From positions 1,303 to 65,302 of the forward strand of contig JADFUW010000002.1 of the NCBI GenBank assembly GCA_015222205.1: a stretch of 64,000 nucleotides of DNA. The letters are read 5' to 3'. A model generated the notes under the pieces. That model was given only the letters and a program-made list of their open reading frames with translations. It was not told the origin of the DNA and did not search any database. The first letter of the stretch is position 1. Each line of letters starts with the position of its first letter. Below, piece after piece: positions 949 to 39,379 of the stretch. The position numbers and the translations under genes were made by a program. Source of the DNA: Chloroflexota bacterium. Lineage in GTDB: Bacteria; Chloroflexota; Dehalococcoidia; Dehalococcoidales; UBA5760.

Positions 949-3537
949 ATGAGAGAAGGTTTAACCCCTATCCGTCAGCAATATCTCAGGATAAAGAGGA
1001 ATTATCACGAGGCTATTGTCTTCTTCCGCCTGGGGGATTTCTACGAGACCTTTGATAAGGATGCTGAGCTTACCTCTCGGGAGCTGGATATTGTGCTGAC
1101 GTCCCGGGAGATGGGTAAGGGGCATCGGGTGCCTATGGCTGGTATTCCCTATCATGCCCTGGATAACTATCTGGCGAGGCTTATTAGTAGAGGCTATAAG
1201 GTTGCTATCTGTGAGCAGGTGACCAGGCCCGGTGAGACGAAGGGACTGGTTGAGCGTGGTGTGGTTCGAGTGGTAACGCCAGGCACGGTAATTGAGCCGG
1301 CTCTTCTTGACGGTAACGCCAATAATTATCTGGTCAGCCTCGTTTTAGGTGATGATGCGGCTGGTATAGCCTATGTTGATATAACCACCAGCGAGTTTGC
1401 TGTTACTCAACTGCCCCGGGAGCGGGCTAACGCTGAACTGGAGCGGCTTAAACCATCGGAGATTATTACGGCGGAGAGTGCTGAACTACCTGATTTAGAA
1501 TTAAAGGCTCCGCTAACCCGGCTTGAGGATTACTGCTTTGAGCTAGAGACGGCCCGCCAAACAGTGCTGGAGCATTTTGGCGTGGCTACCCTTGATGGCT
1601 ATGGCTGTAGTAACCTGCCCCTGGCGATAAGTGCTGCTGGGGCAATCATTCACTATCTTCAGGAAACACAGAAAGGGGTTCTGGGACAGCTAACCCGGCT
1701 TTCTACCTACTCCACTGGTTCATTTATGGCGCTGGATATGCAGACCCAGAGAAACCTGGAGCTATTCCAATCAAGCCGTCTGGGCACTGCTGAGGGCTCA
1801 CTACTATCGGTTATTGACCTGACCAAGACGCCTATGGGAAGTCGGCTATTAAAGAAGTGGCTGGGGCAACCCATACTTGACATAACGGAACTGACCAGGA
1901 GACAGGAGGCTATTGGCTGGTTCTTTGATAATACCCTGGCTCGCAACCAGACGGTTTCCCTGTTTAGCGAGGTGGCTGACCTGGAGCGGTTGATAAACCG
2001 GGTGAGGGGTGATGTGGTTAGTCCGCGTGAGCTAATAAGCCTGAAGCGCAGCCTTGAGGTTATTCCCAAGCTCATAGAGGTAATTACGGCTGGTAAAAGC
2101 AGTAATAGTATTAGCTGGCTCAAGGATAAGCTTAAGCCTCGTCAGGATGTAGTTGACCTGATTACTGAGGCAATAGAGGAGACACCGTCATCAGCTCTGG
2201 GGGAGGGTGGTGTGGTGAGAAAGGGTTTTTCTGAGGAACTGGATAGCCTTTGTCTGGCGTCTAGGAATGCCAAGCATTATCTGGCTAATCTGGAGCGTCA
2301 GGAGCGAGACAAAACGGGAATTAAATCCTTAAAGATAGGCTTTAACAATGTTTTTGGCTACTATATTGAGGTATCCAAAGCTAATCTCGGTCAGGTGCCG
2401 GAGCATTATATCAGAAAGCAGACACTGGTAGGGGCTGAGCGCTTCTTCACCCCGGAGCTAAAGGAGTATGAATCACTGGTTTTGAATGCCCGTGACAGGA
2501 TTAGCGAGCTTGAGTCTGAGCTGTTTCATCGGGTATGTCGCCAGATAGCTACTGCTGGCGAGCGCATCCTAGCCGTTGCCAATGCCCTGGCGAGCCTAGA
2601 TGTCTTCTCCAGCCTGGCTGAGGTGGCGGTGCGTTATGACTACACTAGGCCCAAGCTAACCACGGATAGTGAAGTGGCTATCACTCAGGGACGCCACCCG
2701 GTAGTTGAAAGGAGCTTGACCTATAAGGGCTTTGTGCCCAATGATGCTCATCTTTCCAATGGTGATGCCCAGCTTATTATCCTCACCGGGCCCAATATGT
2801 CAGGCAAGTCAACCTACTTGAGGCAGGTGGCGTTAATCGTCCTTCTGGCACAGACAGGCAGCTTTGTCCCCGCTGATGCGGCAACTATTGGCCTGGTGGA
2901 CCGTATCTTTACCCGGATTGGTGCCGGGGAAGATATTGCCGCCGGTCAGTCTACCTTTATGGTGGAGATGGTGGAGACGGCCAATATCTTAAATAACGCT
3001 ACCCCTCGCTCACTGATTATCCTGGATGAGATTGGGCGGGGCACCAGTACCTACGATGGGCTGTCCATTGCCCGGGCAGTCTGTGAGTATATCCATAATG
3101 CCTCCAGACTGGGGGCGAAAACCCTCTTTGCCACTCACTATCATGAGCTGGTTGAGCTGGCTAGTTTCCTGCCCCGGGTGAAAAACTTTAATGTGGCGGT
3201 AACCGAAGAAGGGGGTAGGGTGGTCTTCTTGTACAAGATTGTGCCGGGCGGGGTTGATAGGAGCTATGGTATCCACGTAGCGCAGCTAGCGGGCTTACCC
3301 AAATCGGTGGTGCACCGGGCACACGAGGTACTGGAGGAATTGGAGGAGGCTAGCCGAGCTACAGGGGCTAAGCCCTTACCCAAGAGGCGCGGTAAGGAGG
3401 TAGCACGGCAGCTAACATTCTTCGGGCAACAATCACCGGTGGCTGAAGAGCTAGAAAAGCTGGACATTAATTCCTTAACACCTCTGGAGGCTCTCACCAA
3501 GCTCTACGAACTGCAACAGAAGGCTAAGGAGGGGTAG
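949..3537 (+). CDS. mutS: DNA mismatch repair protein MutS
   Basis: 862-aa ORF. N-terminal mismatch-binding motif (TPIRQQYLRIKRNY..FFRLGDFYETF), Walker A GPNMSGKST and STFMVEM..DEIGRGTSTYDG are all typical MutS signatures. Confidence 0.97.
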   Translation: MREGLTPIRQQYLRIKRNYHEAIVFFRLGDFYETFDKDAELTSRELDIVLTSREMGKGHRVPMAGIPYHALDNYLARLISRGYKVAICEQVTRPGETKGLVERGVVRVVTPGTVIEPALLDGNANNYLVSLVLGDDAAGIAYVDITTSEFAVTQLPRERANAELERLKPSEIITAESAELPDLELKAPLTRLEDYCFELETARQTVLEHFGVATLDGYGCSNLPLAISAAGAIIHYLQETQKGVLGQLTRLSTYSTGSFMALDMQTQRNLELFQSSRLGTAEGSLLSVIDLTKTPMGSRLLKKWLGQPILDITELTRRQEAIGWFFDNTLARNQTVSLFSEVADLERLINRVRGDVVSPRELISLKRSLEVIPKLIEVITAGKSSNSISWLKDKLKPRQDVVDLITEAIEETPSSALGEGGVVRKGFSEELDSLCLASRNAKHYLANLERQERDKTGIKSLKIGFNNVFGYYIEVSKANLGQVPEHYIRKQTLVGAERFFTPELKEYESLVLNARDRISELESELFHRVCRQIATAGERILAVANALASLDVFSSLAEVAVRYDYTRPKLTTDSEVAITQGRHPVVERSLTYKGFVPNDAHLSNGDAQLIILTGPNMSGKSTYLRQVALIVLLAQTGSFVPADAATIGLVDRIFTRIGAGEDIAAGQSTFMVEMVETANILNNATPRSLIILDEIGRGTSTYDGLSIARAVCEYIHNASRLGAKTLFATHYHELVELASFLPRVKNFNVAVTEEGGRVVFLYKIVPGGVDRSYGIHVAQLAGLPKSVVHRAHEVLEELEEASRATGAKPLPKRRGKEVARQLTFFGQQSPVAEELEKLDINSLTPLEALTKLYELQQKAKEG

Positions 3538-3629
3538 GGGCGGGTTATTGTGCCACTAGAATTCTAGATTCTATAAAAATACATCAGCTCAGGCTGGCTA
3601 TAGAAAGGCGCAAGAAAAGGAGGTAAGAG

Positions 3630-4199
3630 GTGTCCCAGTTCAGATCAAAAGAAGTGGAGAGGGAAGCAGTACGAATGACCGCAGTCATGATGGCATCGAG
3701 TGCTAGGACGGCTCCCAAGGCTAGAGGTCTTGATGCTATAGAAACAATGATTGTCGATGGTAGTGACCTCGAACTTCTGGTAAGTGCTATGGAGGATAAG
3801 GCGAAAGAGCAACCACCCTACCTTTCTTCAATCTTTGACAGGGATGCTCGCAATGTCAGAAACTCCAGTTGTGTATTGTTAATAGGGGTTGTGGGTAACC
3901 CCAAGAAGATTGAGGAATCGTTAGACTGCGGTGCCTGCGGCTACAAAACGTGTAAGGATTTACTCAATGTGAGGAAGCGTGAGGGAAAGGACTTTAGTGG
4001 CCCTATTTGCATATTCCAAGCACTTGACTTAGGTATTGCTCTAGGTTCAGCCGTCAAACTGGCTAGCGGACTCAACGTCGACAACCGCATGATGTACACG
4101 ATTGGGGCGGCGGCGAAGAAATTGCACCTCTTGGATTCTGACATCGTTATTGGTATCCCGCTATCCGTATCCGGTAAGAATATCTATTTCGATAGGTGA
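3630..4199 (+). CDS. DUF2148-like protein (uncharacterised ferredoxin-domain family, COG4739-like)
   Basis: 189 aa, GTG start preceded by AAAGGAGG. ARTAPKARG, CGACGYKTC and GIPLSVSGKNIYFDR match my recollection of the DUF2148 family consensus. Sits between two copies of the mutS 3' end. Confidence 0.7.
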   Translation: MSQFRSKEVEREAVRMTAVMMASSARTAPKARGLDAIETMIVDGSDLELLVSAMEDKAKEQPPYLSSIFDRDARNVRNSSCVLLIGVVGNPKKIEESLDCGACGYKTCKDLLNVRKREGKDFSGPICIFQALDLGIALGSAVKLASGLNVDNRMMYTIGAAAKKLHLLDSDIVIGIPLSVSGKNIYFDR

Positions 4200-4242
4200 T
4201 AGGGCGTTATCGTCCCTACCAGAGAGTCACGGCTCTTTCGTG

Positions 4243-4362
4243 GTCTTTGGGCAAAAATCACCAATATTAGACGAGCTGGAGAAACTTGACATAAACTCAC
4301 TGACGCCCCTTGAGGCCCTCACCAAGCTCTACGAGCTGCAGAAGAAGGCAAGGGAGGGGTAG
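4243..4362 (+). pseudogene. orphan second copy of the mutS 3' end (39 codons + stop)
   Basis: Encodes VFGQKSPILDELEKLDINSLTPLEALTKLYELQKKAREG*, against FFGQQSPVAEELEKLDINSLTPLEALTKLYELQQKAKEG* at the mutS C-terminus (3418-3537). The alignment is gapless and codon-for-codon. No mutS body lies upstream of it. Confidence 0.85.
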
Positions 4363-4375
4363 GGGGGGATTATCG

Positions 4376-4798
4376 GTGACTGGAAGGAGGTGGCTAATTT
4401 TGGAGACTGGGAAATATCGCCTAGTAAAGCGAATGAGGTTGGCAGCGCGGATAATTGGTTTTGGTATGGTGGGGTTTGGTGGAACGATGCTGGTTGGTGA
4501 GGCGGTGAGTGAATATCTTCGGGAAGGCTGGGCAGTAATCACCGAGGTAACCCCGACAGACCCAGGGGTTCTACTAGTTGTGATTGGAGCAGTTGCCCTG
4601 GCGGGCTGTATTCTGTCACGGTGGCGGGAGCGACTGGCTGGCATATTACTGGTTTCCGTTGCTGCTGCACTGGGTGCCCACATTGCTACCTATGCCGGCA
4701 GAAATCATGCCCTGGTGTGGGCTATGGTGGGTCTGCCGTTTCTGGTTTCCGGGTTGCTGTTCCTTAACGCCTGGCGGCTTTCAAAGGAACTAACTTAA
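4376..4798 (+). CDS. small hypothetical integral membrane protein
   Basis: The track ORF 4310-4798 overlaps the mutS remnant. The likely start is GTG 4376 (G-rich SD-like run just upstream) or ATG 4433. It has 3-4 hydrophobic helices (IIGFGMVGFGGTMLVG, VLLVVIGAVALAGCIL, ILLVSVAAALGAHI, WAMVGLPFLVSGLLFL). Confidence 0.55.
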   Translation: MTGRRWLILETGKYRLVKRMRLAARIIGFGMVGFGGTMLVGEAVSEYLREGWAVITEVTPTDPGVLLVVIGAVALAGCILSRWRERLAGILLVSVAAALGAHIATYAGRNHALVWAMVGLPFLVSGLLFLNAWRLSKELT

Positions 4799-4870
4799 AC
4801 AGAATACGCGGTATGCGAATTATAAGAGAAGGTGGAGGGGAGGGGTGAGGATGCTGAGCCGTGTGATTCG

Positions 4871-6058
4871 TCACAATGTTGGAGACTCGAAGGAAATATT
4901 CAGGTCCCCTATTTGAATACCAGATGTGTCGCCGATATACAGTGGTAAAGGCAAGACATCTTTATGCATATTATCATATTGTTCTAGAACTTTTACTTTC
5001 AGTTCCATAAGTTCTGGGGTAAATGTAATGGCGAATTTACTATTCCTGATTAACTCGGCCTTTGAAGATCGGTCTTCTCTTTTCTTTGTCGTGTCCTCTA
5101 ATGAACTCTTTGCATGGTAGAACTGGGACCTAACACGCATATCTTCAATTTTTGCTTTGGCTTTCGGTATTTCCTCTAGCTCTTGTAGCTCTTTACTGAG
5201 CTTCTCTATCTCAATAGAGTAAGAATCAATTTCCTCCAATAGCTCATTGTATTTGGATTCTAGTCTCTTAATAATCACTTGCATATCTGTTAAACATGAC
5301 CTAAGTAATTCTCTAGTGTCGGCTAGCGAAAAGAATAGATATTCCCTCCGCTCTGGATGCCCGAAACCGGTAAACACTGTGTCATTTATGTCATCGTCTA
5401 AAAACCAATTATAGTCCTTCTTCTGATAGCCATTTATCTCTATCGAGCGTATAAACAAGCGTAGTGATATGAGTTCTTCACGTTGATATCCAGCCCTGTC
5501 TTCTTCAGTAATTTTTGCTGCGTCTTTTAGAGCCTTATCTAACTCAGCGGAAATATTTCGAGGCGTGTACTTAATAGTATCATGCGTTTGTATGTTGAAA
5601 GCTAATTCTTGTCCTTCCTTCTGCAAGGGGATTACATACTTGCCTAATGCAGTCATTAGGCCATATTCATAGTAGACATTTGGGTTAGGGATATTTACCT
5701 TCCTCCCGTTTATTAGTTCCATAGTATCATCCAGTATTACAAGGCAAAATTGCGATTCTATTATTTTCCCACATATTTTTGTACAAAATATGTCCTGTCC
5801 ATAAGCTCTCTCTTTGATTGCGATTACAGGTTCAATACCGATTTTTGTAAGTTTTTCAATAATTAGAGCGAGTATAGTTTCTACTTCTTCCTCAGATGGG
5901 CAAGCAACAAAGCATGATTTTGAGGCGCCAAGAAACTTCCCGCAAGAATGGTCTTTGCGAACAAAACATTTAGGGATCTCTCTGAATTGAGTTGATTGTT
6001 GCATTTCCGGAAAGCGTAAAAACCCTCTATTATATCTATAAAATCTGTCCATACTCAT
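4871..6058 (-). CDS. hypothetical protein: N-terminal TIR-like / nucleoside 2-deoxyribosyltransferase-like Rossmannoid domain + C-terminal coiled coil
   Basis: 395-aa ORF, AT-rich. Residues ~48-165 (SCFVACPSEEE..KIGIEPVIAI..QFCLVILDD..NPNVYYEYGLMTALGKYVIPLQKEG) follow the strand/helix pattern and the N-x-x-x-E-x-G-x(4)-GK-x-V-x-L motif of TIR-like (Cap12-type) and N-deoxyribosyltransferase-like domains as I recall them. Residues ~255-330 are a heptad-rich K/E/L coiled coil. Confidence 0.45.
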   Translation of the reverse strand: MSMDRFYRYNRGFLRFPEMQQSTQFREIPKCFVRKDHSCGKFLGASKSCFVACPSEEEVETILALIIEKLTKIGIEPVIAIKERAYGQDIFCTKICGKIIESQFCLVILDDTMELINGRKVNIPNPNVYYEYGLMTALGKYVIPLQKEGQELAFNIQTHDTIKYTPRNISAELDKALKDAAKITEEDRAGYQREELISLRLFIRSIEINGYQKKDYNWFLDDDINDTVFTGFGHPERREYLFFSLADTRELLRSCLTDMQVIIKRLESKYNELLEEIDSYSIEIEKLSKELQELEEIPKAKAKIEDMRVRSQFYHAKSSLEDTTKKREDRSSKAELIRNSKFAITFTPELMELKVKVLEQYDNMHKDVLPLPLYIGDTSGIQIGDLNISFESPTL

Positions 6059-6093
6059 AGTAATATCTCACTAATTTTAGTCCTCTTTAATTT

Positions 6094-6104: not shown

Positions 6105-6235
6105 TGCCATTGTTTACATGCTTATACCACACACCTCACTCACCAAAGGGGTTAAAGGGGCGTTAGACCCTTAAAGAACAGCTTCCCCCTCTCCTTATCA
6201 AGGAGAGGGGGACTAAGGGGGTAAGGTTACAATGT
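6105..6235. repeat. composite palindromic intergenic repeat, copy B
   Basis: Perfect 13-bp inverted repeat TCCCCCTCTCCTT-ATC-AAGGAGAGGGGGA (6184-6212). Its tail CTAAGGGGGTAAGGTTACAAT resembles the tails of copies C and D. The left flank is shared with copy A. Confidence 0.8.
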
Positions 6236-10530: not shown

Positions 10531-11316
10531 TTGAATAGGGTTACTATAGTGAAGCTTGGTGGGGCTACTTTAGGTGGTCATGATACGGCTATTGAGGATA
10601 TGGTCAAGCTTCAGCAGCGAGGCATACCGCTGGTTATAGTCCATGGTGGGGCTAAAGTAGTAACCGAGTGGCTGTCGCGTCAGGGGATTGCTACCAGGTT
10701 TGTCCGTGGTGAGAGGGTGACTGACGAGGCAGCGCTTGAGATGGTAACCGCGGTGCTTGGTGGCTTGGTTAATAAGGGGATTGTGGCGGCTATCAATAAC
10801 TTGGGGGGGCGGGCAGTGGGTATTACCGGTATTGACGGAGCCATGATTCAGGGTAAAATTAGGGATGGAGAGATGGGCTATGTCGCCAGCATAGTTAAAA
10901 TAGATACGGCTCTCCTGGAGGCTTTGTTACGGTCAGGCTACATTCCGGTGGTGGCTCCATTAAGTATGTATTCATTTGAGAGACCAGACGGCGCCCCATT
11001 AGTGCTTAATGTTAACGGTGATACTGTGGCGGGTGAAATTGCGGTGGCTATGGGTGCAGAGAGGCTCATCTTTTTAACTGATGTTGCTGGCATCTGTGAC
11101 CGAGCAGGCAAGCTGCTGCCTTACTTATCGTCCCGTGAGGCTGAAGCGTTAGTAGCTTCAGGCACAGCTTCAGGGGGAATGATTCCTAAGGTTAAAGCTT
11201 GTCTGAGGGCTTTAACTAATGCTTCGGTTACATGCATTATAAATGGGAAACAGCCACACGCATTGCTTAGGGAGGTTGAGGAGGGTGATGTAGGCACAAC
11301 AATACAGCGTAAATAA
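10531..11316 (+). CDS. argB: acetylglutamate kinase
   Basis: 261 aa. IVKLGG...VIVHGGA...NVNGDTVAGEIA is the amino-acid kinase family ArgB pattern. TTG start after AAGGGGG. Confidence 0.93.
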   Translation: MNRVTIVKLGGATLGGHDTAIEDMVKLQQRGIPLVIVHGGAKVVTEWLSRQGIATRFVRGERVTDEAALEMVTAVLGGLVNKGIVAAINNLGGRAVGITGIDGAMIQGKIRDGEMGYVASIVKIDTALLEALLRSGYIPVVAPLSMYSFERPDGAPLVLNVNGDTVAGEIAVAMGAERLIFLTDVAGICDRAGKLLPYLSSREAEALVASGTASGGMIPKVKACLRALTNASVTCIINGKQPHALLREVEEGDVGTTIQRK

Positions 11317-24265: not shown

Positions 24266-24349
24266 TTTGGGGGCTTTGCCCCTCTTAAAATAAATCTCCC
24301 CCTTCCCCTTATTAAGGGGAAGGGGGATACAGGGGATAGGGTTAATAGA
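24266..24349. repeat. composite palindromic intergenic repeat, copy C
   Basis: Small hairpin GGGGC-TTT-GCCCC followed by TCTTAAAA. Then a perfect 15-bp inverted repeat TCCCCCTTCCCCTTA / TAAGGGGAAGGGGGA centred at 24312. Tail ACAGGGGATAGGGTTAAT. Lies between convergent trpS and the aminotransferase. Confidence 0.8.
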
Positions 24350-25535: not shown

Positions 25536-25609
25536 GTACTCCTCCTAGTGTTTATTGATATAAAGTTATACTCGTCATAGCCTGGGGTATTGCTGGCTGC
25601 TATCTGGGT

Positions 25610-25840
25610 TCAGTTATACCGTAGCTCAATTAGAGACCACTGCTTTTCAATTTCATTATAGCAAAGATTGAACAGCCTGTCATCCTTGGTTCTGACCTGA
25701 AAGCATCTTTTTTCCGGCTCCTGCCAGGTCTTTTCTACTTTATCAACTTCGTATTCTATGCCCTGCCATGCAAAAGACCTTGGCTCTTCGGCATAGGTAT
25801 ACCCTGAGTAGCAGCTAACTTTAAGATTATTCACCCCCAT
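25610..25840 (-). CDS. small hypothetical protein (76 aa)
   Basis: ORF with a plausible beta-rich sequence (PRSFAWQGIEYEVDKVEKTWQ..CFQVRTKDDRLFNLCY). No family confidently recognised. Coding status is uncertain. Confidence 0.4.
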   Translation of the reverse strand: MGVNNLKVSCYSGYTYAEEPRSFAWQGIEYEVDKVEKTWQEPEKRCFQVRTKDDRLFNLCYNEIEKQWSLIELRYN

Positions 25841-25963
25841 CCCCCTTTAGGGTTTTTATTGGGTAACTCTCCCCCTTGTGTTCCCCCTCCCTTGATAAGG
25901 GAGGGGGAAGTAGTTATATAAGGGAGGCGAAGCCTCCCTTCAACTCTCTTTAATAAAGAGTCT
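25841..25963. repeat. composite palindromic intergenic repeat, copy D (inverted orientation relative to A-C)
   Basis: 13-bp inverted repeat TTCCCCCTCCCTT-GAT-AAGGGAGGGGGAA (25881-25909). 8-bp hairpin AGGGAGGC-GAA-GCCTCCCT (25921-25939). 6-bp hairpin CTCTTT-AAT-AAAGAG (25946-25960). The reverse complement aligns with copy B, including the tail AAGGGGGAGAGTTACCCAAT. Confidence 0.8.
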
Positions 25964-26117: not shown

Positions 26118-26870
26118 TTAAGTAAGTGGTTCAAAGTCGTTCCATCTCTGTTTCCATTTATCGAATCGGGGATGTTCCTTTAAGCTATTAAGTTTTTGCT
26201 TAGCTTCCTCGCGGTCTTTAGATCCTATACGAGGAAGTACATAACGAGAGAAGTAAATTGTTTCTTCTGTTGATTGTGACTCGTGAAGAGGCATTTCGCT
26301 TTTATGTTTTTTTAACAATTCTTCTAGTTCATGACCCACCTTGTAGGCTAAGTTTGTATCACCTAAGTCATGCCTCTCTGACAATGCCATTAAGTAGTTG
26401 TTAAGTGCCATTCCTTTTAATTCCCAATGGGTCTTTTCGTCAATTTCTCTAGCATAATTTACTGCCTTCTCTGCTTCGGTAACCGCATAGTCAATAAGGT
26501 AGGTGGCCGTCTTATCATGTTCATAGAGGCGACCCCACAACGGTGCGACTTTCATGTGTAGGGTGCTAAAGAAGTCGTTCTTACACTCTTCAATAGCACC
26601 GCTAAGTTCAGCCCTGAGATCACGTAATAGCATATTTCGAAGAGCCCAGCCAAGTATAGCTATTAGTACTGCCGTAAGGACAGTCAAAACTGCTATCACA
26701 ATCAAAATCACATCACGTAGAACATTATAGGCATCCTCCCCACTAGTGAGCAGAATTGGATGTTGTGAAAAATACAAATACGCAAAAAAGCCTGCTAATC
26801 CACCAAATATAACTACTAAAAGAATTAGTAAGGGCGGTAGTAATGACAGCCTCCTCGTTCTCATCGTCAT
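26118..26870 (-). CDS. hypothetical membrane protein (two N-terminal TM helices + helical soluble domain)
   Basis: 250-aa ORF, AT-rich, SD AAGGAGG before the ATG. Helices LSLLPPLLILLVVIFGGLAGFFAYLYF and VILIVIAVLTVLTAVLIAILGWAL. No family recognised. Confidence 0.6.
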   Translation of the reverse strand: MTMRTRRLSLLPPLLILLVVIFGGLAGFFAYLYFSQHPILLTSGEDAYNVLRDVILIVIAVLTVLTAVLIAILGWALRNMLLRDLRAELSGAIEECKNDFFSTLHMKVAPLWGRLYEHDKTATYLIDYAVTEAEKAVNYAREIDEKTHWELKGMALNNYLMALSERHDLGDTNLAYKVGHELEELLKKHKSEMPLHESQSTEETIYFSRYVLPRIGSKDREEAKQKLNSLKEHPRFDKWKQRWNDFEPLT

Positions 26871-26894: not shown

Positions 26895-26942
26895 TTATAT
26901 CTCCGGTCTCCTCTTATGCCACTCGGTTGCCTGCTGGTAGGC
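26895..26942 (-). pseudogene. orphan second copy of the gatA 3' end (15 codons + stop)
   Basis: The minus strand encodes [15 protein letters not shown], identical to the gatA C-terminus (27088-27135). 5 of 48 nt differ and all are silent (including TAG vs TAA). Confidence 0.85.
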
Positions 26943-26975
26943 GATTTTCATTTTTCACCTTTTACCAAGTAACTA

Positions 26976-27004
26976 TTGACAAATGTCTGATTATCTGATA
27001 GTCT
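26976..27004 (+). promoter_or_regulatory. promoter-like element (TTGACA-17 nt-TAGTCT)
   Basis: TTGACA at 26976-26981, a 17-nt spacer, and a weak -10 TAGTCT at 26999-27004. It lies ~30 nt upstream of the terminator hairpin. Confidence 0.25.
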
Positions 27005-27030
27005 TAAGGCTAGAATCACGACGAAAAGCA

Positions 27031-27069
27031 CCCTGTGAGGTTCCGTCCTTACAGGGGGTTTTTCTTTTT
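27031..27069. terminator. bidirectional intrinsic terminator (gatCA on minus strand; strong U-tract on plus strand)
   Basis: 10-bp stem CCCTGTGAGG / CCTTACAGGG with a 6-nt loop. It is followed by GGTTTTTCTTTTT on the plus strand. On the minus strand the hairpin is followed by TGCTTTTCG. Confidence 0.7.
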
Positions 27070-27087
27070 ATACTCCAATTTTCCACT

Positions 27088-28557
27088 CTAAATTTCCGGT
27101 CTCCTCTTGTGCCACTCGGTTGCTTGCTGGTAGGCGTAGGCAATTTTTAAGATAGTTTCCTCAGCAAAGGGCTTGCCGATAATCTGCATGCCTATGGGCA
27201 GCCCGTCGGCAAAGCCGGCCGGGATGGAGATAGCCGGCACTCCGGCGATATTTATCGGCAGGGTGCAGATATCGCTTAAATACATCTGAAGGGGGTCGTC
27301 TACCTTCTCCCCGATTTTGAAGGGGACGGTGGGGGAGGTGGGGGTTATCAGGGCATCAAATTTGCTAAAAGCCTGGTCAAACTCCTGCCGTATTAAGGTG
27401 CGCACCTTTTGGGCTTTTAGGTACCAGGCATCATAGTAGCCGGCGGACAGGGCATAGGTTCCCAGCATAATACGCCTTTTCACCTCAGGTCCAAAGCCAT
27501 ACTGGCGGGTCTTTTCCAGCGCCTCCCACATATTGTCGGTCTCCTGATAGGAGAAGCCATACTTTACCCCGTCGTAGCGAGCCAGGTTGGCTGAAGCCTC
27601 TGATGGGGCGATGATATAGTATGCCGCCAGGGCATAGGGGGTTGATGGTAGTGATACTCCCCACTCTATCTTGGCCCCCAGTTCTTTAAGTTTAGCGATA
27701 GCGGCTCGTATGGCTGTTTCTACTTCTGTCTGCATTCCCTCAACGAAATACTCCTTGGGGACACCGAGGCGAAGGCCATTAAGGTTGCCGGTTAGGCACT
27801 GAGTGTAATCGGGCGTAGGCTCGGGAACCGAGGTAGAATCTCTTGGGTCATAGCCAGCGATGGCGTTTAATACTAGGGCACAATCAGTAACATCCTGGGT
27901 TAGCGGTCCAATCTGGTCAAGGGAGCTGGCAAAGGCGACCAGACCGTATCGGCTCACCCTGCCGTAGGTAGGTTTGAGGCCGGTAACACTGCAGAAGCCA
28001 GCCGGCTGGCGAACACTGCCGCCGGTATCCGAGCCCAGGGCATAGATGGCTTCGCCAGAGGCTACCCCCACGGCTGAACCCCCACTACTTCCGCCAGGCA
28101 CGCGGCTCAAGTCCCAGGGGTTATGGGTGGGGAAGAAGGCGGAGTTCTCGGTAGACGAACCCATAGCAAATTCATCCATGTTTGCCTTACCTATAATTAC
28201 GGGGTGATGCCCGTTTAACCTTTCGACTACAGTGGCGTCATAGGGTGGCACAAAATTTTCCAGCATCTTTGATGAGCAGGTGGTTTTTATCCCTTTGGTG
28301 CACATGTTGTCCTTGATTAGCACCGGGATGCCGGTAAGTGGGTTAGTATTGCCAGTCGCAATAAGCTCGTCAGCCTCTTGAGCTTGCTTTAGTGCTAGCT
28401 CATCAGTAACAGTAACCAGGGCACTAATCTTTGGCTCGATTTCATGTATACGCGCTAGATGGGCTTTGGTTAGTTCAACTGAGGAAAGTTGCTTGGTTTT
28501 AAGTAGCTGATGTGCCTCATGGATTGTCAAATGGTTATGATTAGTTATATTACTCAC
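27088..28557 (-). CDS. gatA: Asp-tRNA(Asn)/Glu-tRNA(Gln) amidotransferase subunit A
   Basis: 489 aa. Amidase signature [20 protein letters not shown]. Located downstream of gatC. Confidence 0.97.
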
Positions 28558-30430: not shown

Positions 30431-30784
30431 TGGTGGAGACGGGGGAGAGTTGAACTCCCCGTCCAGAGGAAGCTACCCAAAATATCCTACAAGCTTAGTC
30501 AGCTCTTTTTCTTACTTAGCTAGCCTCTGCTAACCGAGTTTAGCCAAGCCAGCCAATAAATCTTTCGTCACTCTTTATTGGCATCAGAGCGGCGGCACCT
30601 CAACTTTTCGTCACCCAATCCTAACCCATTGAGGCGAGGTCAGGTTGGATGTGCAACCTATTTAATTAGGCTGCAAGAGCGAATTCAGGTTCGCCAGTTA
30701 TTTCTGCCACTTGTTTTATGAGGGTAGCGGCACCTCAGCTTGCAATTCTGCAGCATACCTCCCCTGTCGAACCCATGCGTCCCC
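30431..30784 (-). ncRNA. ssrA: tmRNA (SsrA)
   Basis: The minus strand reads 5' GGGGACGCATGGGTTCGACAGGGG ... GGACGGGGAGTTCAACTCTCCCCCGTCTCCACCA 3'. It has a tRNA-Ala-like acceptor stem with a G3:U pair, a T-arm and an encoded CCA. The internal tag ORF ends ...GGC GAA CCT GAA TTC GCT CTT GCA GCC TAA, giving (AEIT)GEPEFALAA*. The resume codon is not determined. smpB is adjacent. Confidence 0.95.
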
Positions 30785-34568: not shown

Positions 34569-35924
34569 TTATTCTTCAGGCACAGGTGGTATCAGCCCTG
34601 ATTTCATGAGAAGAGCGGTAGTTTCCCTCGACTCCTTGATCATCTTTTCAGCTTGCTTGGTCAGCTCTTCGTGGTCGGCTGTTTTGCGGGCTACACCCTG
34701 CTCTATGGCCTTCATGCCTACGGCTACCGCCTCTTTGATAAAGACCTCCCATTCTCCCATAGTGGGGATAACATAATCATCGTGTATTCCCCGCTCCTCG
34801 GCACATTTAGCTAACTCGTAGGCGGCGGCAAGGCACATCTCGTCGGTGATGGTTCTAGCTTTGACATCCAGGGTGCCGCGGAAGATAGCGGGAAAACCGA
34901 TGGAGTTATTTACTTGATTGGGGAAGTCTGACCTGCCGGTAGCTACAATCCTGGCGCCGGCCTCTTTGGCTTCCCACGGCCAGATTTCAGGAATAGGGTT
35001 GGCACAAGCAAAGAGTATGGCATCCTTGGCCATAGATTTTATCCATTCCGGCTTGATAGTATCTGGTCCTGATTTAGACAGTGAGATACAGATATCAGCT
35101 CCCCTAAGAGCCTCGTAAGTTCTGCCAGTTCTCTTCTCGGGGTTAGTTCTCTGACACAGGTCCCACTTGTAGGGATTCTCGGCTTGCCTTGCCTCAAGGT
35201 CGGTTCTACCGGTATGCAGGGTACCCTTGCTATCGACAAAGATGGCATTCTGCGGCTTGAAGCCAGCGGTGAAGAGGAGCCTAGCGATGGCTATGTTGGC
35301 CGCCCCGACCCCATTTAAGGTGACGCTTACCTCATCCTTCTTCTTGCCCACTATCTTGAGGGCATTGACCAGTCCAGCCAGGGTAACTGCGGCTGTCCCC
35401 TGCTGGTCATCATGCCATACCGGGATAGCCATTTCTTGGCGCAGGGTGTCCAGAATATAAAAGCATTTGGGGTTAGCAATATCCTCCAGATTAATGCCAC
35501 CAAAGGAGGGTTGAAGCCACTTTACTGCCTGAATTATCTCATCGGGGTCTTTGGTGTCAAGACAGATAGCGACGGCATCAACGCCACCCAGGTATTTAAA
35601 TAGTAGGGCTTTACCCTCCATTACTGGTAGGCCTGCCTCGGGGCCAATGTCACCTAGTCCCAGGACCCTGGTACCGTCGGATACTATGGCTACGGTATTC
35701 CACTTATTGGTATATTCATAGACCTTTTCTTTATCTATCTTTATTGCCTTGCAGACCTCGGCAACACCGGGGGTATACCAGATAGCAAAATCATTAACAT
35801 CACGAACGGCACATTTAGCCGTAGTCTGCATCTTACCCCGGTAAAATGGGTGCAATCTCATAGCGTCTTCTGCCGGTTGGCGTGCTTTAGCCAGGAGCTC
35901 TTCTTTGGTTACTTTTGGCGACAT
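34569..35924 (-). CDS. NAD(P)-dependent malic enzyme
   Basis: 451 aa. [12 protein letters not shown], the [19 protein letters not shown] pattern and the Rossmann motif [10 protein letters not shown] fit the prokaryotic short malic enzyme family. Confidence 0.92.
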
Positions 35925-36087
35925 TGCTTACCTCTTTTAATCAGTGGTCATTCATACTTTCAACGAATATAGGCGTTATAGCTCTTATTAATCTATTAAG
36001 GCATTATTAGTTTAAGGGGTGTAAATTAAGTGAAATGCTTCCCGAAGGTTAAGGCCAGAATTTGAGACGAATATTAAAACCCCTTAA

Positions 36088-37674
36088 TCATGTTGGTATA
36101 ATGCCGTGCTTCTTTTTAGGTCTTGGTTCCATCTTATCTATTACCATCTCCAGTGCTTTTATCAACCTTGGTCTTGTTTCTGCTGGGTCAATTACATCGT
36201 CAACATGGAGGTGTTCGGCGGCCCTATATGGATTGGCGAATATACTTCGGTATTCCTGTATTTTCTCCTGCAGTAGCGCATCAGCATCTTCAGCCTTTTC
36301 CAGTTCTTTTCTGAATATTACCGCCGCCGCTCCCTCTGGCCCCATCACTGCTAGTTCTGTGGTAGGCCAGCAAAATACCGTATCAGCACCTAGATCTTTA
36401 CAGCACATTCCTAGATAAGCACCCCCGTATGCCTTTCTGATAGTGAGGGTGATTTTGGGTACTGTGGCCTCCGAATAGGCGTAGAGCATCTTGGCGCCGT
36501 GCCTGATTATCCCCCCCCACTCCTGGTCGGTGCCGGGTAGATATCCGGGAACATCAACCAGATTGATAATCGGGATATTAAAGGCATCGCAGAATCGGAT
36601 AAATCTTGAGGCCTTATCGCAGGCATCAATATCCAGACATCCTGCCTTTGACATCGGCTGTTGAGCTATTATGCCTACTGACCACCCGTTAAGTCTGGCA
36701 AAGCAGGTGATTATGTTGGTGGCAAATATGGGGAAGAGCTCAAAGTAATTCTTCTTTCCATTCGGTTCCTGGTCAAATACTCGCTCAATTATCTTGTGTA
36801 TATCATACGGTTTGTTGGGACTGGCGGGGACAATATCAAATAGGGTTGGGTCTATACGGTTTGGGTCATCGCCGAGGTCAACCCTTTTCGGTCTCTCCCT
36901 ATTGCTTGATGGCAGGTAGCCCAGCAGCTCCCTTATGCTTTCCAGACATTCAGCCTCGCTATTTTCAGAGCGGCAAGCCACCCCCGCCTTCTTTTGTGCC
37001 GTAATAGCACCGCCAAGCTCCTCGGGGTTAATCTCCTCCCCCATTACGGCCTTGACCACCTGTGGTCCGGTGATAAAGGCATAGCTTATGCCTTTAACCA
37101 TGAATATAAAGTCCATTAGTGCTGGGGAATATACGCCACCTCCAGCGCAGGGACCGAGAATGGCACATATTTGAGGGATTACCCCGGAAAATATCGAGTT
37201 TCTGTAGAAAATTTGACCATAGCCAGCCAGGGCATCAACGCCGTCCTGAATTCTGGCACCCCCGGAATCATTTATGCTGATGATAGGGCAACCTACCTTA
37301 GCGGCGCTATCCATTATGTGGCAAATCTTGGCGGCGTGTATTTCGGATAGACTTCCTCCAACAGTGGTGAAATCTTGAGCGTAGACATATACTTTTCTGC
37401 CATCAATCTTACCGTAGCCAGTAACTACCCCATCGGCGGGCACCTGTATCTTATCCATACCAAGGGCAGTACCTCGGTTGGTGGCGAACATACCCGTTTC
37501 ACAGAAAGTTCCCTTGTCAAGTAATCGGTCAATCCGCTCGCGGGCGGTTAGCTTGCCTCGCTTTTTCTGTTTTGCCACGCCATCCCTGCCCCCCATCGCC
37601 TTAATCTTTTCCTGGCGCTCTTTTAGGTCAGCGAGTAATTTGTCCTTTATTTGTTTATCTTCCCGTGTTGCCAT
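36088..37674 (-). CDS. acyl-CoA carboxyltransferase (methylmalonyl-CoA decarboxylase alpha / propionyl-CoA carboxylase beta family)
   Basis: 528 aa. Two carboxyltransferase domains (DFTTVGGSLSE..., PKITLTIRKAYGGAY). No biotin carrier or other subunits in the window. Confidence 0.9.
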   Translation of the reverse strand: MATREDKQIKDKLLADLKERQEKIKAMGGRDGVAKQKKRGKLTARERIDRLLDKGTFCETGMFATNRGTALGMDKIQVPADGVVTGYGKIDGRKVYVYAQDFTTVGGSLSEIHAAKICHIMDSAAKVGCPIISINDSGGARIQDGVDALAGYGQIFYRNSIFSGVIPQICAILGPCAGGGVYSPALMDFIFMVKGISYAFITGPQVVKAVMGEEINPEELGGAITAQKKAGVACRSENSEAECLESIRELLGYLPSSNRERPKRVDLGDDPNRIDPTLFDIVPASPNKPYDIHKIIERVFDQEPNGKKNYFELFPIFATNIITCFARLNGWSVGIIAQQPMSKAGCLDIDACDKASRFIRFCDAFNIPIINLVDVPGYLPGTDQEWGGIIRHGAKMLYAYSEATVPKITLTIRKAYGGAYLGMCCKDLGADTVFCWPTTELAVMGPEGAAAVIFRKELEKAEDADALLQEKIQEYRSIFANPYRAAEHLHVDDVIDPAETRPRLIKALEMVIDKMEPRPKKKHGIIPT

Positions 37675-38156
37675 ATTAGTCCCTCAGTTCAACTAGTTCG
37701 ATTAGTATTTTTGGTTTCTTCTTATTAATTAAAGTTAAAACAATATTATTATTGCCTAAAGATATATTCCTAAACTTGGCAGGGTCATCCCTGCTAGGTT
37801 GAGCTAAAGCTTAACAACTTTTGCAGCGTTTGTCTATCTCCTGATAGAGTTCCTTGATACCCATATCATTTATGACTTACGCAATGACAACTTGACAGCT
37901 TAAACTGTATTTCTTGTTGTTCTGCCTTTCTCTCAGTTTATTTTACTATATTCCCGCTTCTCTATAAAGGGTGCCTGCTTATTTGAGTTATTGGTAACAT
38001 ATAACTAACCTCTTCAGTCCTCTTTTTCTGTTAACTGCTTTAAGAGCTGAACTGGGAGTCTAGTTGGTGTTAAAGCCTAGAAATCCTAACCCCGCTAGGC
38101 TATAATAAACACTAGTTCAAGTAGCTGGAATGTCGTTCTGAGAACAGGAACGGGTT

Positions 38157-39323
38157 GTGAATATAGATGAACTAAAGACCTTAGTTATTGGCGAAGTGGA
38201 TGCTCACCGTGACCAGCTTAACGAGCTCAGCCTAAGAATTCACTCTAATCCAGAGCTGGCTTTCCAGGAAACTAAGGCGGTAGCCTGGCTAACTCAATAC
38301 CTGGAGGCAAACGGTTTCTCTGTAGAACAAGGAATCTGTGGACTCCCGACTGCTTTCCGGGGAGACTATGGGCATGGAAAACCGGCTATTGCCATTCTGG
38401 CTGAATATGATGCCCTACCCGGGCTGGGGCATGCCTGTGGCCATAATCTTATTGCTACTCTGGCTGTTGGTGCTGGGGTGGCTTCTAGGCTGGCGGTTGG
38501 CCAGCTTGGGGGTAGCATCCTCGTTATCGGCACACCGGCCGAAGAGCTATATGGGGGCAAGATAAAAATGGCTAGCCGAGGAGCCTTTGACAGTGTGGAT
38601 GTAGCTATGATGGTACACCCGGGGACACATGATGTTGCTACTACCCAGGCCCTTGCTTGCCAGACTCTAGAGGTTGAATTCTTCGGTAAGGCAGCTCACG
38701 CTGCTGCCAAGCCGGAGGCAGGCATCAACGCCCTCGAGGCAATGGTTCAATCCTTCGTGGCTATTAATTCACTGCGGCAGCATATCAAGGATAAATCTCG
38801 AATCCACGGTATTATTACTGACGGTGGGCAGGCGGCTAATATAGTCCCCGCCCACAGTGCTGGGATTTTTATTGTGCGGGCTGAGAGTGATGTTTATCTT
38901 GATGAACTAAAGCAAAGGGTCATAAACTGTTTTGTTGGTGCCGCTACAGCTAGTGGGGCTCGCTTAGAATACAGGTGGGAAGATGTCCGTTATGCTAACA
39001 TGCGTAATAATCTAACCCTGGCCCGATTATTCAAGCAGAATATGGAGTTCTTGGGGCGCAAGGTTAAGCTCACTGACCCCGATAGCAGTGTCGGTAGTAC
39101 TGATATGGGTAATGTCAGTCAATTAGTGCCCGGTATTCATCCCACGGTAGCAATAGCTCCAGAGGGTGTAGGTATTCATTCCCCGCAGTTTGCCTCGGCG
39201 GCCGCTTCGGAAGCAGGGAGCCGTGGTCTCTTTGATGCCGCTAAAGCCCTAGCTATGACCGTTGTTGACTTAGTGACCAGCCCCGGGATAATTTTCAGGG
39301 TTAAAGAGGAATTTAGGCAGTAA
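38157..39323 (+). CDS. M20-family amidohydrolase/metallopeptidase (AbgB-like)
   Basis: 388 aa, GTG start. HACGHNLI and GTPAEE motifs and an M20D-type layout. Confidence 0.85.
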   Translation: MNIDELKTLVIGEVDAHRDQLNELSLRIHSNPELAFQETKAVAWLTQYLEANGFSVEQGICGLPTAFRGDYGHGKPAIAILAEYDALPGLGHACGHNLIATLAVGAGVASRLAVGQLGGSILVIGTPAEELYGGKIKMASRGAFDSVDVAMMVHPGTHDVATTQALACQTLEVEFFGKAAHAAAKPEAGINALEAMVQSFVAINSLRQHIKDKSRIHGIITDGGQAANIVPAHSAGIFIVRAESDVYLDELKQRVINCFVGAATASGARLEYRWEDVRYANMRNNLTLARLFKQNMEFLGRKVKLTDPDSSVGSTDMGNVSQLVPGIHPTVAIAPEGVGIHSPQFASAAASEAGSRGLFDAAKALAMTVVDLVTSPGIIFRVKEEFRQ

Positions 39324-39379
39324 CCGCTGCTGGTGATGGGGCTACGGCGGCCATTAGTGCCGAAAAATTTCTCACCTAA
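39317..39379 (+). pseudogene. orphan 3'-terminal fragment of a thioredoxin-disulfide reductase (trxB-like) gene
   Basis: 20 codons + stop encode AVTAAGDGATAAISAEKFLT*. This matches the conserved TrxB C-terminal pattern QA(I/V)TAAG(D/S)G..AA..AEK(F/Y)L. An in-frame TAG lies immediately upstream, no trxB body exists, and the fragment overlaps the last two codons of the M20 gene. Confidence 0.65.

Follow-up and report, generated by a model that had tools for sequence, protein, structure and literature searches.

Results

Three detached gene ends

The window (the whole stretch of 64,000 nucleotides that was analysed) is Dehalococcoidales-like and was taken from a contig of a metagenome-assembled genome (MAG). 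Detached 3' termini of mutS, gatA and trxB are all present at the places where the original prediction had reported them (Table 1). Its further statement that these orphans border accessory or low-GC DNA holds at gatA only; the mutS orphan is flanked by the DUF2148 and DUF7670 genes, both of normal GC content, and the trxB remnant lies between its ancestral neighbours, the M20 peptidase gene and rplI.

Table 1 Features of the three loci in the window
Feature	Position	Strand	Basis
mutS, 862 aa, intact	949..3537	+	ORF
Copy A, working mutS 3' end: last 39 codons, stop and 11 nt beyond	3419..3548	+	Direct repeat D1, translation, codon comparison
735-nt block with the DUF2148 gene, the spacers on both sides of it, the mutS stop and the first ~20 nt of orphan	3528..4262	+	Mismatch maps, alignment
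DUF2148 (ferredoxin-domain) gene, "cargo" between two mutS ends	3630..4199	+	Pfam PF09918, E = 6e-32
Copy B, orphan 3' end of mutS; translation VVFGQKSPILDELEKLDINSLTPLEALTKLYELQKKAREG, then stop at 4360-4362	4244..4373	+	Direct repeat D1
DUF7670 membrane-protein gene, downstream of orphan	4400..4798	+	Pfam PF24709
Low-GC (38%) accessory ORF, 395 aa, orphan not adjacent	4871..6058	-	Composition
Pair of GC hairpins closing variable slot	25883..25945		Same pair at far side of slot in L148, L149, L150
Low-GC (0.40) accessory cargo gene, 250 aa	26118..26870	-	Starts 24 nt after orphan stop
Orphan gatA 3' end, 18-residue reading	26895..26951	-	Repeat copy 26896-26943
Spacer from gatA stop to orphan, with 10-bp GC hairpin (27031-27056)	26952..27087	-	
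gatA, intact; working repeat copy in its last 16 codons (27089-27136)	27088..28557	-	ORF
M20 peptidase gene, conserved neighbour	38157..39323	+	Pfam
trxB remnant, ~21 codons and stop	39316..39379	+	Aligned with L152 trxB end
Promoter-like TTTACT-16-TATAAT (39394-39421) and rplI (39440-39916)	39394..39916	+	Pfam L9

The mutS locus

The window MutS is 75% identical in amino acids to MutS of the Dehalococcoidales MAG CP070645.1, and the gene is ~80% identical in nucleotides to mutS of L091 and L089 over its full length with no visible breakpoint. Its two 3' ends, copies A and B, are 78% identical to each other. They differ at 31 of 123 nt, 21 of these at third codon positions, and 20 of the changes are synonymous as against 11 non-synonymous (dN/dS 0.13/2.2, about 0.06; binomial P = 1.4e-6 for the synonymous excess); the copies thus differ like alleles from two lineages.

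The order mutS-DUF2148-DUF7670 recurs in L087, L089 and L091, whose MutS proteins are 81-83% identical in amino acids to that of the window, and tblastn matches to DUF7670 were obtained in L138, L089, L087, L136 and L091. DUF2148 and DUF7670 are conserved syntenic neighbours of mutS and not accessory DNA. The 395-aa ORF farther downstream gave only weak TIR and coiled-coil matches under the cut-off, and past DUF7670, on the side that covers this ORF, no homology to L138 was found. The full arrangement mutS-DUF2148-orphan-DUF7670, with an identical right-hand junction, occurs in several independent metagenome contigs, and the orphan with DUF2148 is present in independent ENA, JGI and NCBI contigs (L001, L002, L085 and L138). 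Its state varies: the window and L138 have it intact, L085 has it with a frameshift, ~9 codons of it are left in L091, L087 and L136, and in L089 it is no longer recognisable. The displaced copy has thus eroded in some lineages. The homologous orphans of L138, L085, L091, L087 and L136 have their upstream junction in common, and the spacer from the DUF2148 stop to the orphan is homologous across the contigs, so that the mutS rearrangement was one old event shared by the whole clade. Where DUF2148 genes lie in other contexts, no repeats flank them.

The copies also show mosaics and concerted evolution, as the following comparisons illustrate. Copy B of the window is 89% identical to the functional mutS end of L001, copy B of L085 carries a lineage-specific GCTCTGACC that is also in its own copy A, and copy B of L002 is a mosaic with an L138-like 5' half and a 3' half like copy A of L001. 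The intact orphan evolves like a working allele (dN/dS ~0.1, window vs L138), and the survival of so old an orphan in the window and L138 needs either repeated overwriting or selection. The 735-nt block is 99.2-99.5% identical to L001, L002 and L138, where the flanks are ~80% identical, and its three distinct right flanks all diverge from base 4263. An independent event at mutS was found in the Anaerolineae MAG L029, in which the duplicated end starts within 3 codons of the start in the window clade, a near-coincidence that hints at a preferred site. The L029 insert consists of a PIN-like DUF3368 gene (25.8 bits vs a cut-off of 27.3) and an unassigned gene upstream of it.

The gatA locus

The window gatA is a 100% match to P0001 ("GatA, MAG Chloroflexi bacterium"). 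All five differences between orphan and working end in the 16 shared codons are synonymous (P = 2.3e-4), and the stop codons differ as well. The orphan also has a private 6-nt in-frame deletion (codons AY) that none of 120 functional alleles shows. Three relatives with GatA 86-88% identical (L148-L150) retain the order NfeD, gatC, gatA, slot, aminotransferase, and each carries a different small gene 19-99 nt past the gatA stop; the position directly after this stop is a variable gene slot. These three relatives have neither the orphan nor a counterpart of the window's spacer 3' of gatA, and the orphan structure was seen in the window and in no other assembly.

The cargo gene in the window's slot has no significant Pfam family (the sole match, DUF6057, has E = 0.0086 and 15.4 bits vs a cut-off of 29.8) and no PADLOC, phage or plasmid match. 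It has 17 homologs, and the six loci examined for two of these (L158-L164) are not gatA loci and have promoter-like sequence of their own upstream. Among the three loci, gatA is the only one that looks like a recent gain of an accessory gene.

The trxB locus

The trxB remnant is real, matching the trxB end of L152 base for base, and is slightly longer than first claimed (~21 codons, from ~39316). L152-L155 have the order M20, trxB (307 aa), rplI, dnaB, DnaB_2, IstB-like gene, HNH, and the window has the same order minus trxB, with no second trxB elsewhere in it. The window M20 peptidase is 79% identical in amino acids to that of L152 over residues 1-385 of 394, and trxB sequence in another frame now supplies the last two codons and the stop of its gene. 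The comparison shows a deletion of ~888 nt between 4-nt microhomologies ((C/A)GGC), with no inserted DNA, that left just the remnant of the ~924-nt trxB. The same junction is present in the independent JGI contig L157, and the promoter-like sequence of rplI is conserved in L152 and L157, untouched by the deletion.

Search for an enzyme and background of duplicated ends

In agreement with the original prediction, Pfam searches of the window ORFs gave no integrase, recombinase or transposase. Nor was one found by Pfam in L029 (both insert genes), next to mutS in L004 (three of four downstream ORFs) or among the Pfam-scanned genes of the gatA slots of L148-L150; in L149 the first slot gene was scanned and the others were judged by precomputed Pfam annotation, which held nothing relevant. 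The three junction sets have no k-mer of at least 8 nt in common except the Shine-Dalgarno-like TAAGGAGG and one opposite-strand 8-mer, and the mutS 3' fragment was not found on IMG/VR viral contigs. The rplI reading frame of one relative continues into a serine-recombinase fragment (P0168).

Duplicated last-40-residue segments were also sought in 1.8 Mb of fetched loci, a crude and biased background. Outside the window only two cases (L029 and L054) were detected, giving ~0.07 expected duplicated termini per 64 kb, against which two parent-linked orphans in 64 kb are an excess (P(>=2) about 0.003) as far as so rough and biased a background allows. This excess speaks against the explanation that we favour below.

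Discussion

We suggest that the three orphan termini are probably scars of three separate, ordinary rearrangements bordering conserved genes, and not products of a dedicated cassette-insertion system. The one recurrent, lineage-specific process inserting cassettes next to stop codons that was originally proposed is not supported: the mutS event is a single old one of the clade, and the trxB scar is an insert-free deletion. Most likely, the mutS and gatA scars arose by recombination that was homologous at one end and illegitimate at the other ("C-terminal displacement") and the trxB scar by simple gene loss. The second mechanism offered in the original prediction, homology-facilitated illegitimate recombination (HFIR) on conserved gene ends, would fit mutS and gatA and would explain why the duplicated ends resemble working alleles of another lineage. 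Because no donor arrangement for the mutS or gatA insertion was recovered, we infer the step with one homologous and one illegitimate end from the products.

At mutS, an incoming mutS 3' end with DUF2148 would have entered an ancestor of the Dehalococcoidales clade by homologous recombination inside mutS, and the other end of the incoming DNA would have joined illegitimately ~118 nt before the resident stop codon, thereby displacing the resident end downstream. Where the displaced copy did not erode, short-patch recombination or gene conversion may have replaced it with sequence from working alleles, as the mosaics suggest, and the two repeats may now serve as crossover points for swapping adjoining segments, as suggested by the sharp identity breaks. 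At gatA, one slot exchange in the window lineage may have ended imprecisely, with 16-18 codons of a second gatA allele left ahead of the low-GC cargo as a result. At trxB, the deletion joined the M20 gene to the final ~21 codons of trxB and spared the rplI promoter.

The high identity of the 735-nt block and its common break at base 4263 would also fit a discrete mobile unit. The block might be an enzyme-less, repeat-flanked cassette that RecA excises as a circle with a hybrid repeat and that, after uptake, enters another mutS end by a Campbell-type single crossover. Both breaks in identity fall within the two repeats, the A/B sequences are mosaic between strains and the window encodes a type IV pilus cluster, all of which suit such a cycle. 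It predicts, however, that positions 20-110 of window copy A equal copy B of L001 and L002, and the identities observed were 87% over 15 nt and 75% over 60 nt. Moreover, the architecture is ancestral to the clade, so that ordinary allelic replacement by double crossover in conserved patches explains the block pattern too, and we regard the cassette as unlikely. Somewhat less likely still is a tyrosine or serine recombinase, encoded elsewhere, that places small elements into attB sites at the 3' ends of protein genes and supplies surrogate ends, its remnants having decayed or been mobilised in trans. Direct repeats of gene ends that flank an insert and differ mainly at silent sites are reminiscent of e14 at icd (PMC6379469), the independent L029 insert begins at nearly the same mutS position, integrase elements targeting the mutS 5' end have been described (PMC5296598), and the recombinase fragment joined to the rplI frame lies in a relative. 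Against it stand the lack of any recombinase in the genes scanned, inserts of one or two genes lying flush between the repeats, a mutS event that is single and ancient, a trxB scar that is a deletion, junctions lacking a common core and the absence of the mutS fragment from viral contigs; the site-specific recombinase of the original prediction finds no support here.

The orphans could also be kept for use in place, for instance the mutS end as a small MutS C-terminal peptide or RNA element and the gatA end as an 18-codon leader ORF for the cargo. The low dN/dS between the window and L138 mutS orphans would suit this, as would the ATG of the gatA orphan, with AAGGTG 5 nt upstream and its end 24 nt before the cargo start. 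Yet the mutS orphan is frameshifted, truncated or lost in five relatives and its only in-frame GTG has no Shine-Dalgarno sequence, while neither the post-gatA cargo genes of relatives nor the cargo homologs elsewhere have such a leader, which makes a role in place very improbable. We give almost no weight to assembly artefacts from a strain mixture. The window does come from a MAG contig (P0001, P0241, "MAG: Chloroflexi bacterium"), the clade is very diverse in metagenomes, with over 120 GatA relatives that are 84-88% identical, and the gatA structure was seen in no other assembly. But the identical structures in independent assemblies, for mutS-DUF2148-orphan in four contigs and for the trxB junction in L157, dispose of a chimera at these two loci, and the gatA orphan carries a deletion absent from functional alleles and has just ~12 nt in common with the sequence that a chimeric join would require.

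Several known systems come close to what is seen at these loci. Microhomology-mediated deletion leaving a pseudogene remnant is a generic route of gene loss in streamlined genomes, and trxB conforms to it: syntenic relatives have the gene intact, the two ends of the deletion have 4 nt in common, and the neighbouring genes and the promoter survive, the sole twist being that the M20 gene borrows its stop codon from trxB sequence. Dehalococcoides, of the same bacterial class, has integrase-carrying genomic islands targeted to ssrA (tmRNA) with direct repeats of its 3' end; a gene 3' end is likewise duplicated at the borders here, whereas the window's own tmRNA gene (30431-30784) has neither a duplicated 3' end nor an island. 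In Escherichia coli, e14 and phage 21 integrate at the icd 3' end and leave a 163-bp pseudo-icd duplicate (PMC6379469; Hill et al. 1989 cited there). There too a copy of the target end flanks the insert on either side, the differences are mostly silent and the functional copy comes from the incoming DNA, but these elements are prophages of 15-40 kb that have an integrase and defined att cores, whereas the window inserts measure 0.15-0.8 kb and have no integrase, phage genes or common core that we could find. The original prediction knew of no described system that uses mutS termini in this way, a remark to be qualified because integrase-bearing mobile elements in Beta- and Gammaproteobacteria insert in the mutS 5' end (HTPMMQQ motif) and bring a new start for the gene (Chu et al. 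2017, PMC5296598). As in the window, mutS is repeatedly targeted, a replacement terminus is supplied, the host-derived terminus is orphaned and near-identical elements occur in diverged hosts; these elements differ in using the opposite gene end, in their size of 4 to >150 kb, in their integrase and experimentally proven excision, and in belonging to a different phylum.

The mechanism proposed for mutS and gatA has a precedent in C-terminal displacement by HFIR at rhs loci and in the effector-immunity arrays of the Vibrio cholerae type VI secretion system, HFIR itself having been reported in Acinetobacter, Streptococcus pneumoniae and Pseudomonas stutzeri (PMC5361080 and references therein). 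There, as proposed for the window, a new 3' part and a downstream gene enter by way of an anchor in the conserved part of the gene upstream, and the former 3' end is shifted downstream, where it remains as an orphan resembling another allele. Unlike those polymorphic toxins, mutS and gatA are single-copy housekeeping genes, each window locus has one orphan rather than an array, and the mutS orphan is ancient and seemingly refreshed; for this phylum the mechanism is proposed by analogy.

The type IV pilus cluster of the window is a possible DNA-uptake machine, although we know of no demonstration of natural transformation for this bacterial group. That the scars are concentrated at gene ends would follow from selection, which retains a junction only if the essential gene and the promoter downstream still work.

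Results

Features of the window, with positions in nucleotides; paired entries are the two copies of a repeat
Feature	Position	Strand	Description
mutS	949-3537	+	closest species representative 75% identical at most
mutS ends, working / orphan	3419-3548 / 4244-4373		130 nt, 78% identity (repeat finder)
DUF2148 gene	between the working and orphan mutS ends		Pfam
Block shared with L001, L002 and L138	3528-4262		735 nt, 99.2-99.5% identity; right end (4262) reads ...AAATCACC
395-aa ORF	4871-6058	-	low GC; long coiled coil
REP-like palindromes	865-888, 6186-6230, 24298-24326, 25883-25907		CCCCTCTCC-loop-GGAGAGGGG and GGGGG-rich tail
GC hairpin pair	25883-25945		far side of gatA slot
Cargo gene in gatA slot	26118-26870	-	low GC, 250 aa
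gatA ends	27089-27136 / 26896-26943	-	48 nt, 92% identity (repeat finder)
ORF in gatA orphan	26951-26895	-	18 codons, ATG, AAGGTG 5 nt upstream
AT-rich segment	37675-38156		region upstream of M20 peptidase gene
trxB orphan	39323-39379		reads TAAGDGATAAISAEKFLT and stop
Repeat in IstB/DnaC-like gene	42293-42383 / 42851-42941		91 nt, 75% identity
PilB-like ATPase gene	51210-53621		in pilus cluster
Type IV pilus genes	51210-60253

The three detached gene ends of the original prediction, those of mutS, gatA and trxB, are all present. The mutS orphan translates as VVFGQKSPILDELEKLDINSLTPLEALTKLYELQKKAREG up to its stop and the gene's own end as TFFGQQSPVAEELEKLDINSLTPLEALTKLYELQQKAKEG; for both mutS and gatA, the gene itself is intact and the displaced piece of 3' end, from the same gene family, follows it downstream. 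The silent-site bias between copies also held, with 20 synonymous versus 11 non-synonymous changes for mutS (P = 1.4e-6) and 5 versus 0 for gatA (P = 2.3e-4). The dN/dS values of the end pairs are 0.13/2.2 for mutS, 0/1.0 for gatA and 0.14/1.03 for a second mutS pair from an Anaerolineae locus (L029), with about 0.06/0.8 for functional-versus-functional pairs. The strong excess of silent changes therefore rules out tandem duplication in place followed by neutral decay; within each pair, the copies evolved in separate lineages, each as the end of a functional gene.

The best match of MutS among species representatives is that of the Dehalococcoidales MAG CP070645.1 (75%). A metagenome scan with the DUF2148 protein returned 65 loci, and in L087, L089 and L091 (MutS 81-83% identical) mutS, DUF2148 and DUF7670 are ordered as in the window. 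DUF2148 and DUF7670 are therefore conserved neighbors, and the mutS orphan does not lie beside accessory DNA as had been proposed. The orphan decays by degrees: it is intact in the window and in L138, L085 has a frameshifted version with an internal gap, L091, L087 and L136 retain only its last ~9 codons (HELQKKAREG), and in L089 it is past recognition. Because the spacer between the DUF2148 stop and the orphan aligns as homologous across all these contigs, the mutS-DUF2148-orphan structure arose once, before the lineage split. The outgroup loci L003 and L005 have neither DUF2148 nor the orphan, and in L004 the mutS end itself has changed from KARE onward, with unrelated small genes behind it. 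Where the mutS insert ends on the right, homology does not extend past the repeat, and no breakpoint inside mutS was visible at 150-nt resolution in comparison with ~80% identical relatives. A mobile DUF2148 cassette that always brings gene-end repeats was rejected: among those of the 49 located DUF2148 loci that have at least 150 nt on both sides, flanking repeats occur only next to mutS, and homologs in other contexts (e.g., dinB, DUF2148, UPF0182 in L083 and L084) have none. In L087 (~495-531) and L091 (~5286-5322), mutS has lost its stop and reads ~12 codons into the start of DUF2148, and its terminal codons AAGGAGGGGTAG resemble a Shine-Dalgarno sequence for the next gene.

Two features of the mutS locus go beyond ordinary decay, namely an orphan that behaves like a working allele and a near-identical block. 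By sequence comparison, the intact mutS orphans look like just another functional allele. Ranked by identity, the window orphan is closest to the L001 working end (89%), then to the L085 working end (83%), the L138 orphan (80%) and its own working end (75%), and intact orphans compared with one another give a dN/dS of about 0.1. Conversion has left traces. In L085, the decayed orphan and the working end both carry the lineage-specific GCTCTGACC, while the L002 orphan is a mosaic whose first half is L138-like and whose second half equals the working end of L001 over 24 nt. We infer that working alleles occasionally overwrite the orphan.

The near-identical block that the window shares with L001, L002 and L138 has sharp edges. 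The strains of these three contigs are recorded under ENA ERZ23498685 and ERZ27251159 and JGI Ga0114921. On its left, mutS falls to about 81% identity; on its right, identity in the orphan and DUF7670 is about 80% and there is no homology past DUF7670; both identity breaks fall in the repeats. The DUF2148 allele may have spread among diverged genomes, with double crossovers in these conserved stretches, or near-identical genomes may have had their flanks replaced; the short contigs of L001, L002 and L138 are compatible with both readings. A single excised circle as the source of the block does not fit, since the window's working end and the orphans of L001 and L002 are not the same sequence. 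Below threshold, the 395-aa ORF shows a weak resemblance to a TIR domain (CAP12/Pycsar effector TIR, E = 0.0015); it may be a defense gene in the variable region after DUF7670.

At gatA, three relatives on long contigs (L148-L150; GatA 86-88% identical) share the order NfeD, gatC, gatA, a variable slot, (DUF6504, AsnC), aminotransferase. The slot gene differs in each, starts 19-99 nt past the gatA stop, and encodes 113, 135 or 203 aa that match no Pfam family; on its far side, the slot carries in each relative the same GC hairpin pair as in the window, and none of the three has a gatA orphan. The family of the window's cargo gene comprises only 17 proteins, and six loci around two of its homologs (L158-L164) are set in other surroundings, where a promoter-like sequence of their own precedes them and gatA has left no remnant. 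The window orphan ends 24 nt before the cargo start, and the gatA stop lies 19 nt (L149) and 31 nt (L150) before the slot gene; from this same spacing geometry it follows that the orphan used to be a genuine gatA end with a slot gene immediately behind it. A private 6-nt deletion in the orphan shows that decay has begun, and no homology beyond the repeat was seen at its left junction. The orphan and the cargo may have entered as one piece that was attached behind the resident terminator, or the resident end may have been displaced by an incoming gatA 3' part with its terminator.

The small ORF in the gatA orphan, which likewise ends 24 nt before the cargo start, could encode a leader peptide or be a coincidence. 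The slot gene of L149 (5238-5645) has a Cys/His pattern that is HNH-like by eye (CRKCK...CRNCH) and no Pfam match. The AsnC-type regulator between DUF6504 and the aminotransferase in relatives is gone from the window, with no recognizable remnant (25536-25610 compared with L148 7282-7797 and L150 7492-7974). The REP-like palindromes, present also downstream of gatA in L148-L150, are intergenic, each has a second small GC hairpin before it, and their position is kept in relatives (5 matches versus 0 expected). They were considered as element ends, with an inverted pair (6186-6230 / 25863-25907) bounding both islands; the same palindromes occur at 865 and 24298, and relatives have them in slots that are empty or hold other genes; they are therefore not element ends.

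The trxB scar is a gene loss. In relatives found by RplI on long contigs (L152-L155), the genes run M20 peptidase, trxB, rplI, dnaB, DnaB_2, IstB-like gene, HNH, with a 307-aa trxB product and trxB overlapping the M20 stop. The window has the same row minus trxB, which is found nowhere else within it, and its M20 protein matches that of L152 at 79% identity across residues 1-385 of 394. In L152, M20 reads ...GAATTTCGGC... and trxB ...CCGGCAGGCAATAATC..., a short direct repeat at both end points. In the window and in L157, the junction reads GAATTTAGGCA(G/A)TAACC, M20 ...GAATTT being joined to trxB AGGCAATAATCGCTGCC... across (C/A)GGC microhomology. About 888 nt were removed, the end point being uncertain by about 4 nt because the relative compared is diverged, and M20 now stops at a TAA from trxB read out of frame. 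A promoter-like TTTACT-16-TATAAT of rplI lies just downstream of the scar and is conserved. An assembly chimera, raised at the outset as a possible source of such scars, is contradicted by the same junction in the independent JGI contig L157 (sample 3300032062, RplI 96%). Nor does this orphan border accessory DNA: the M20 gene is not accessory, and the AT-rich segment lies upstream of it.

In P0168, a database RplI relative (71% identity) on an 859-nt ENA contig, the RplI frame runs into a large serine recombinase fragment (PF07508), and the 3' end of rplI in that relative may hold an element that carries a recombinase. The internal repeat in the 469-aa IstB/DnaC-like ATPase gene is consistent with two tandem AAA modules, and relatives share the long form (453 aa in L152).

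Beyond this clade, a duplicated mutS end was found in one other of 75 species-representative mutS loci, the Anaerolineae MAG locus L029. Its insert consists of two genes, a PIN-like DUF3368 just under the Pfam cut-off and one without assignment. Its mutS ends also differ mainly at silent sites, its orphan starts 3 codons from the window-clade orphan start, at the QLxLF clamp-binding motif, and a near-copy of this orphan is a 42-aa database protein. Queried with the 43-aa orphan, phmmer matched 233 of 1.84 billion representatives, and nearly all of these hits are short. The best 150 of these include about 100 plain MutS C-terminal fragments from contig edges and at least 30 short ORFs with a non-MutS N-terminus before the MutS tail, counts that lack a control gene and genomic context and hence give no rate, the chimera share being inflated by clustering of the representatives at 50% identity. 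Recognizable N-termini among proteins P0258-P0407 are MutL, NIF3-like, OMP decarboxylase, ParB, three PIN and NfuA-like, P0284 is a single case of an in-frame internal MutS deletion, and the joins of the chimeric ORFs cluster at QLxLF and EELEKLD. These hits are only a hint that detached mutS tails may be widespread. In an unrelated phylum, an Ignavibacteriota MAG (L054) offers an orphan-tail candidate: a 471-aa protein has two further copies of its last 40 residues in the vicinity (11099-11215, 4799-4918), one of them being 95% identical in a 43-codon frame.

Discussion

Our results do not bear out the single recurrent process, inserting cassettes at gene ends, that was originally proposed: there is no shared motif, the events differ in age and kind, and there is no enzyme candidate. 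The mutS event is clade-wide, and the trxB event is common to a 96% relative (L157); in kind, they are an insertion with a displaced end at mutS, a slot exchange at gatA and a deletion at trxB. Because just two more orphan tails linked to a parent gene turned up in 1.8 Mb of fetched loci, a small and biased background, the window shows some enrichment (P about 0.003). In our reading, the breakpoints that survive are concentrated at gene ends since no other position would spare both the essential gene and the promoter after it. Each of the three scars is a further instance of an already known type of rearrangement.

Insertion by a site-specific recombinase, of the type known from e14 and phage 21 at icd, shares with the mutS and gatA loci the repetition of the target-gene 3' end on both sides of the insert (for trxB the comparison is not applicable), but differs in having a recombinase in or next to the insert and a shared att core, neither of which was found here. 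Pfam searches of essentially every window ORF gave no recombinase, integrase or transposase, as the first reading had stated; what they identified was genes for core metabolism and replication, along with the type IV pilus cluster. No recombinase was found by Pfam in either L029 insert gene, three of four ORFs downstream of mutS in L004, or the first cargo gene of each of L148-L150, and the precomputed Pfam annotation of the other L149 slot genes contained nothing relevant. The mutS, gatA and trxB junctions share no informative k-mer of at least 8 nt as a common att core. The suggestion of a site-specific recombinase thus finds support on neither count, a gene within the window or the scanned inserts and a common junction core. 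Classical integrase cases include e14 at icd (PMC6379469) and elements at the mutS 5' end (PMC5296598); an integrase insertion might be the origin of the ancient mutS event, but has no support in these data. IMG/VR contigs contain no mutS 3' fragment, the cargo proteins have no match in phage or plasmid collections, and PADLOC gave nothing usable. Integron cassettes differ in having attC sites and an adjacent IntI, whereas here no integrase was found and the repeats are gene ends rather than attC-like imperfect palindromes. A tmRNA-type island was rejected, the window having no duplicated ssrA end; Rfam and ARAGORN report one tmRNA gene and one tRNA gene only within it.

The mutS and gatA loci resemble C-terminal displacement by homology-facilitated illegitimate recombination (HFIR) in that the two ends are like alleles from separate lineages, unlike a duplicate decaying in place. 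We favor a model whereby both insertions would have arisen by recombination with one homologous and one illegitimate end, which has been described in transformable bacteria and proposed for orphan toxin and effector tails (PMC5361080). The window encodes type IV pilus genes, and DNA uptake by this host is putative. Within the pilus cluster, a restriction-endonuclease domain, Mrr_cat (Pfam E = 6.9e-11), forms the N-terminus of the PilB-like secretion ATPase, an unusual fusion.

A broader reading, which we think improbable, is that the last 30-40 codons of mutS, from the beta-clamp-binding QLxLF or from EELEKLD to the stop, might be a recurrent breakpoint in many bacterial lineages. Orphan tails would then be footprints of repeated mutS replacement with the donor's downstream DNA, or of gene loss and re-acquisition, and in some lineages the orphan would be kept alive by conversion and serve as a homology arm that moves neighbors, such as the ~99%-identical DUF2148 block, between diverged genomes without a dedicated recombinase. 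Leads for this reading are the L029 event, the chimeric ORFs and the sharp boundaries of the DUF2148 block.

As it stands, the finding matters little. It shows that, in this streamlined Dehalococcoidales genome, short detached gene ends are everyday scars of gene gain and loss and that three neighboring scars do not imply a hidden enzyme. It is a worked example of how relatives tell apart an old displaced end, a recent slot exchange and a deletion that look alike in one sequence. Displaced mutS tails might record the natural frequency with which mismatch-repair genes are replaced, an old question that goes back to the mosaic mutS genes of E. coli. The repeats may also act as built-in crossover points for swapping neighboring genes.
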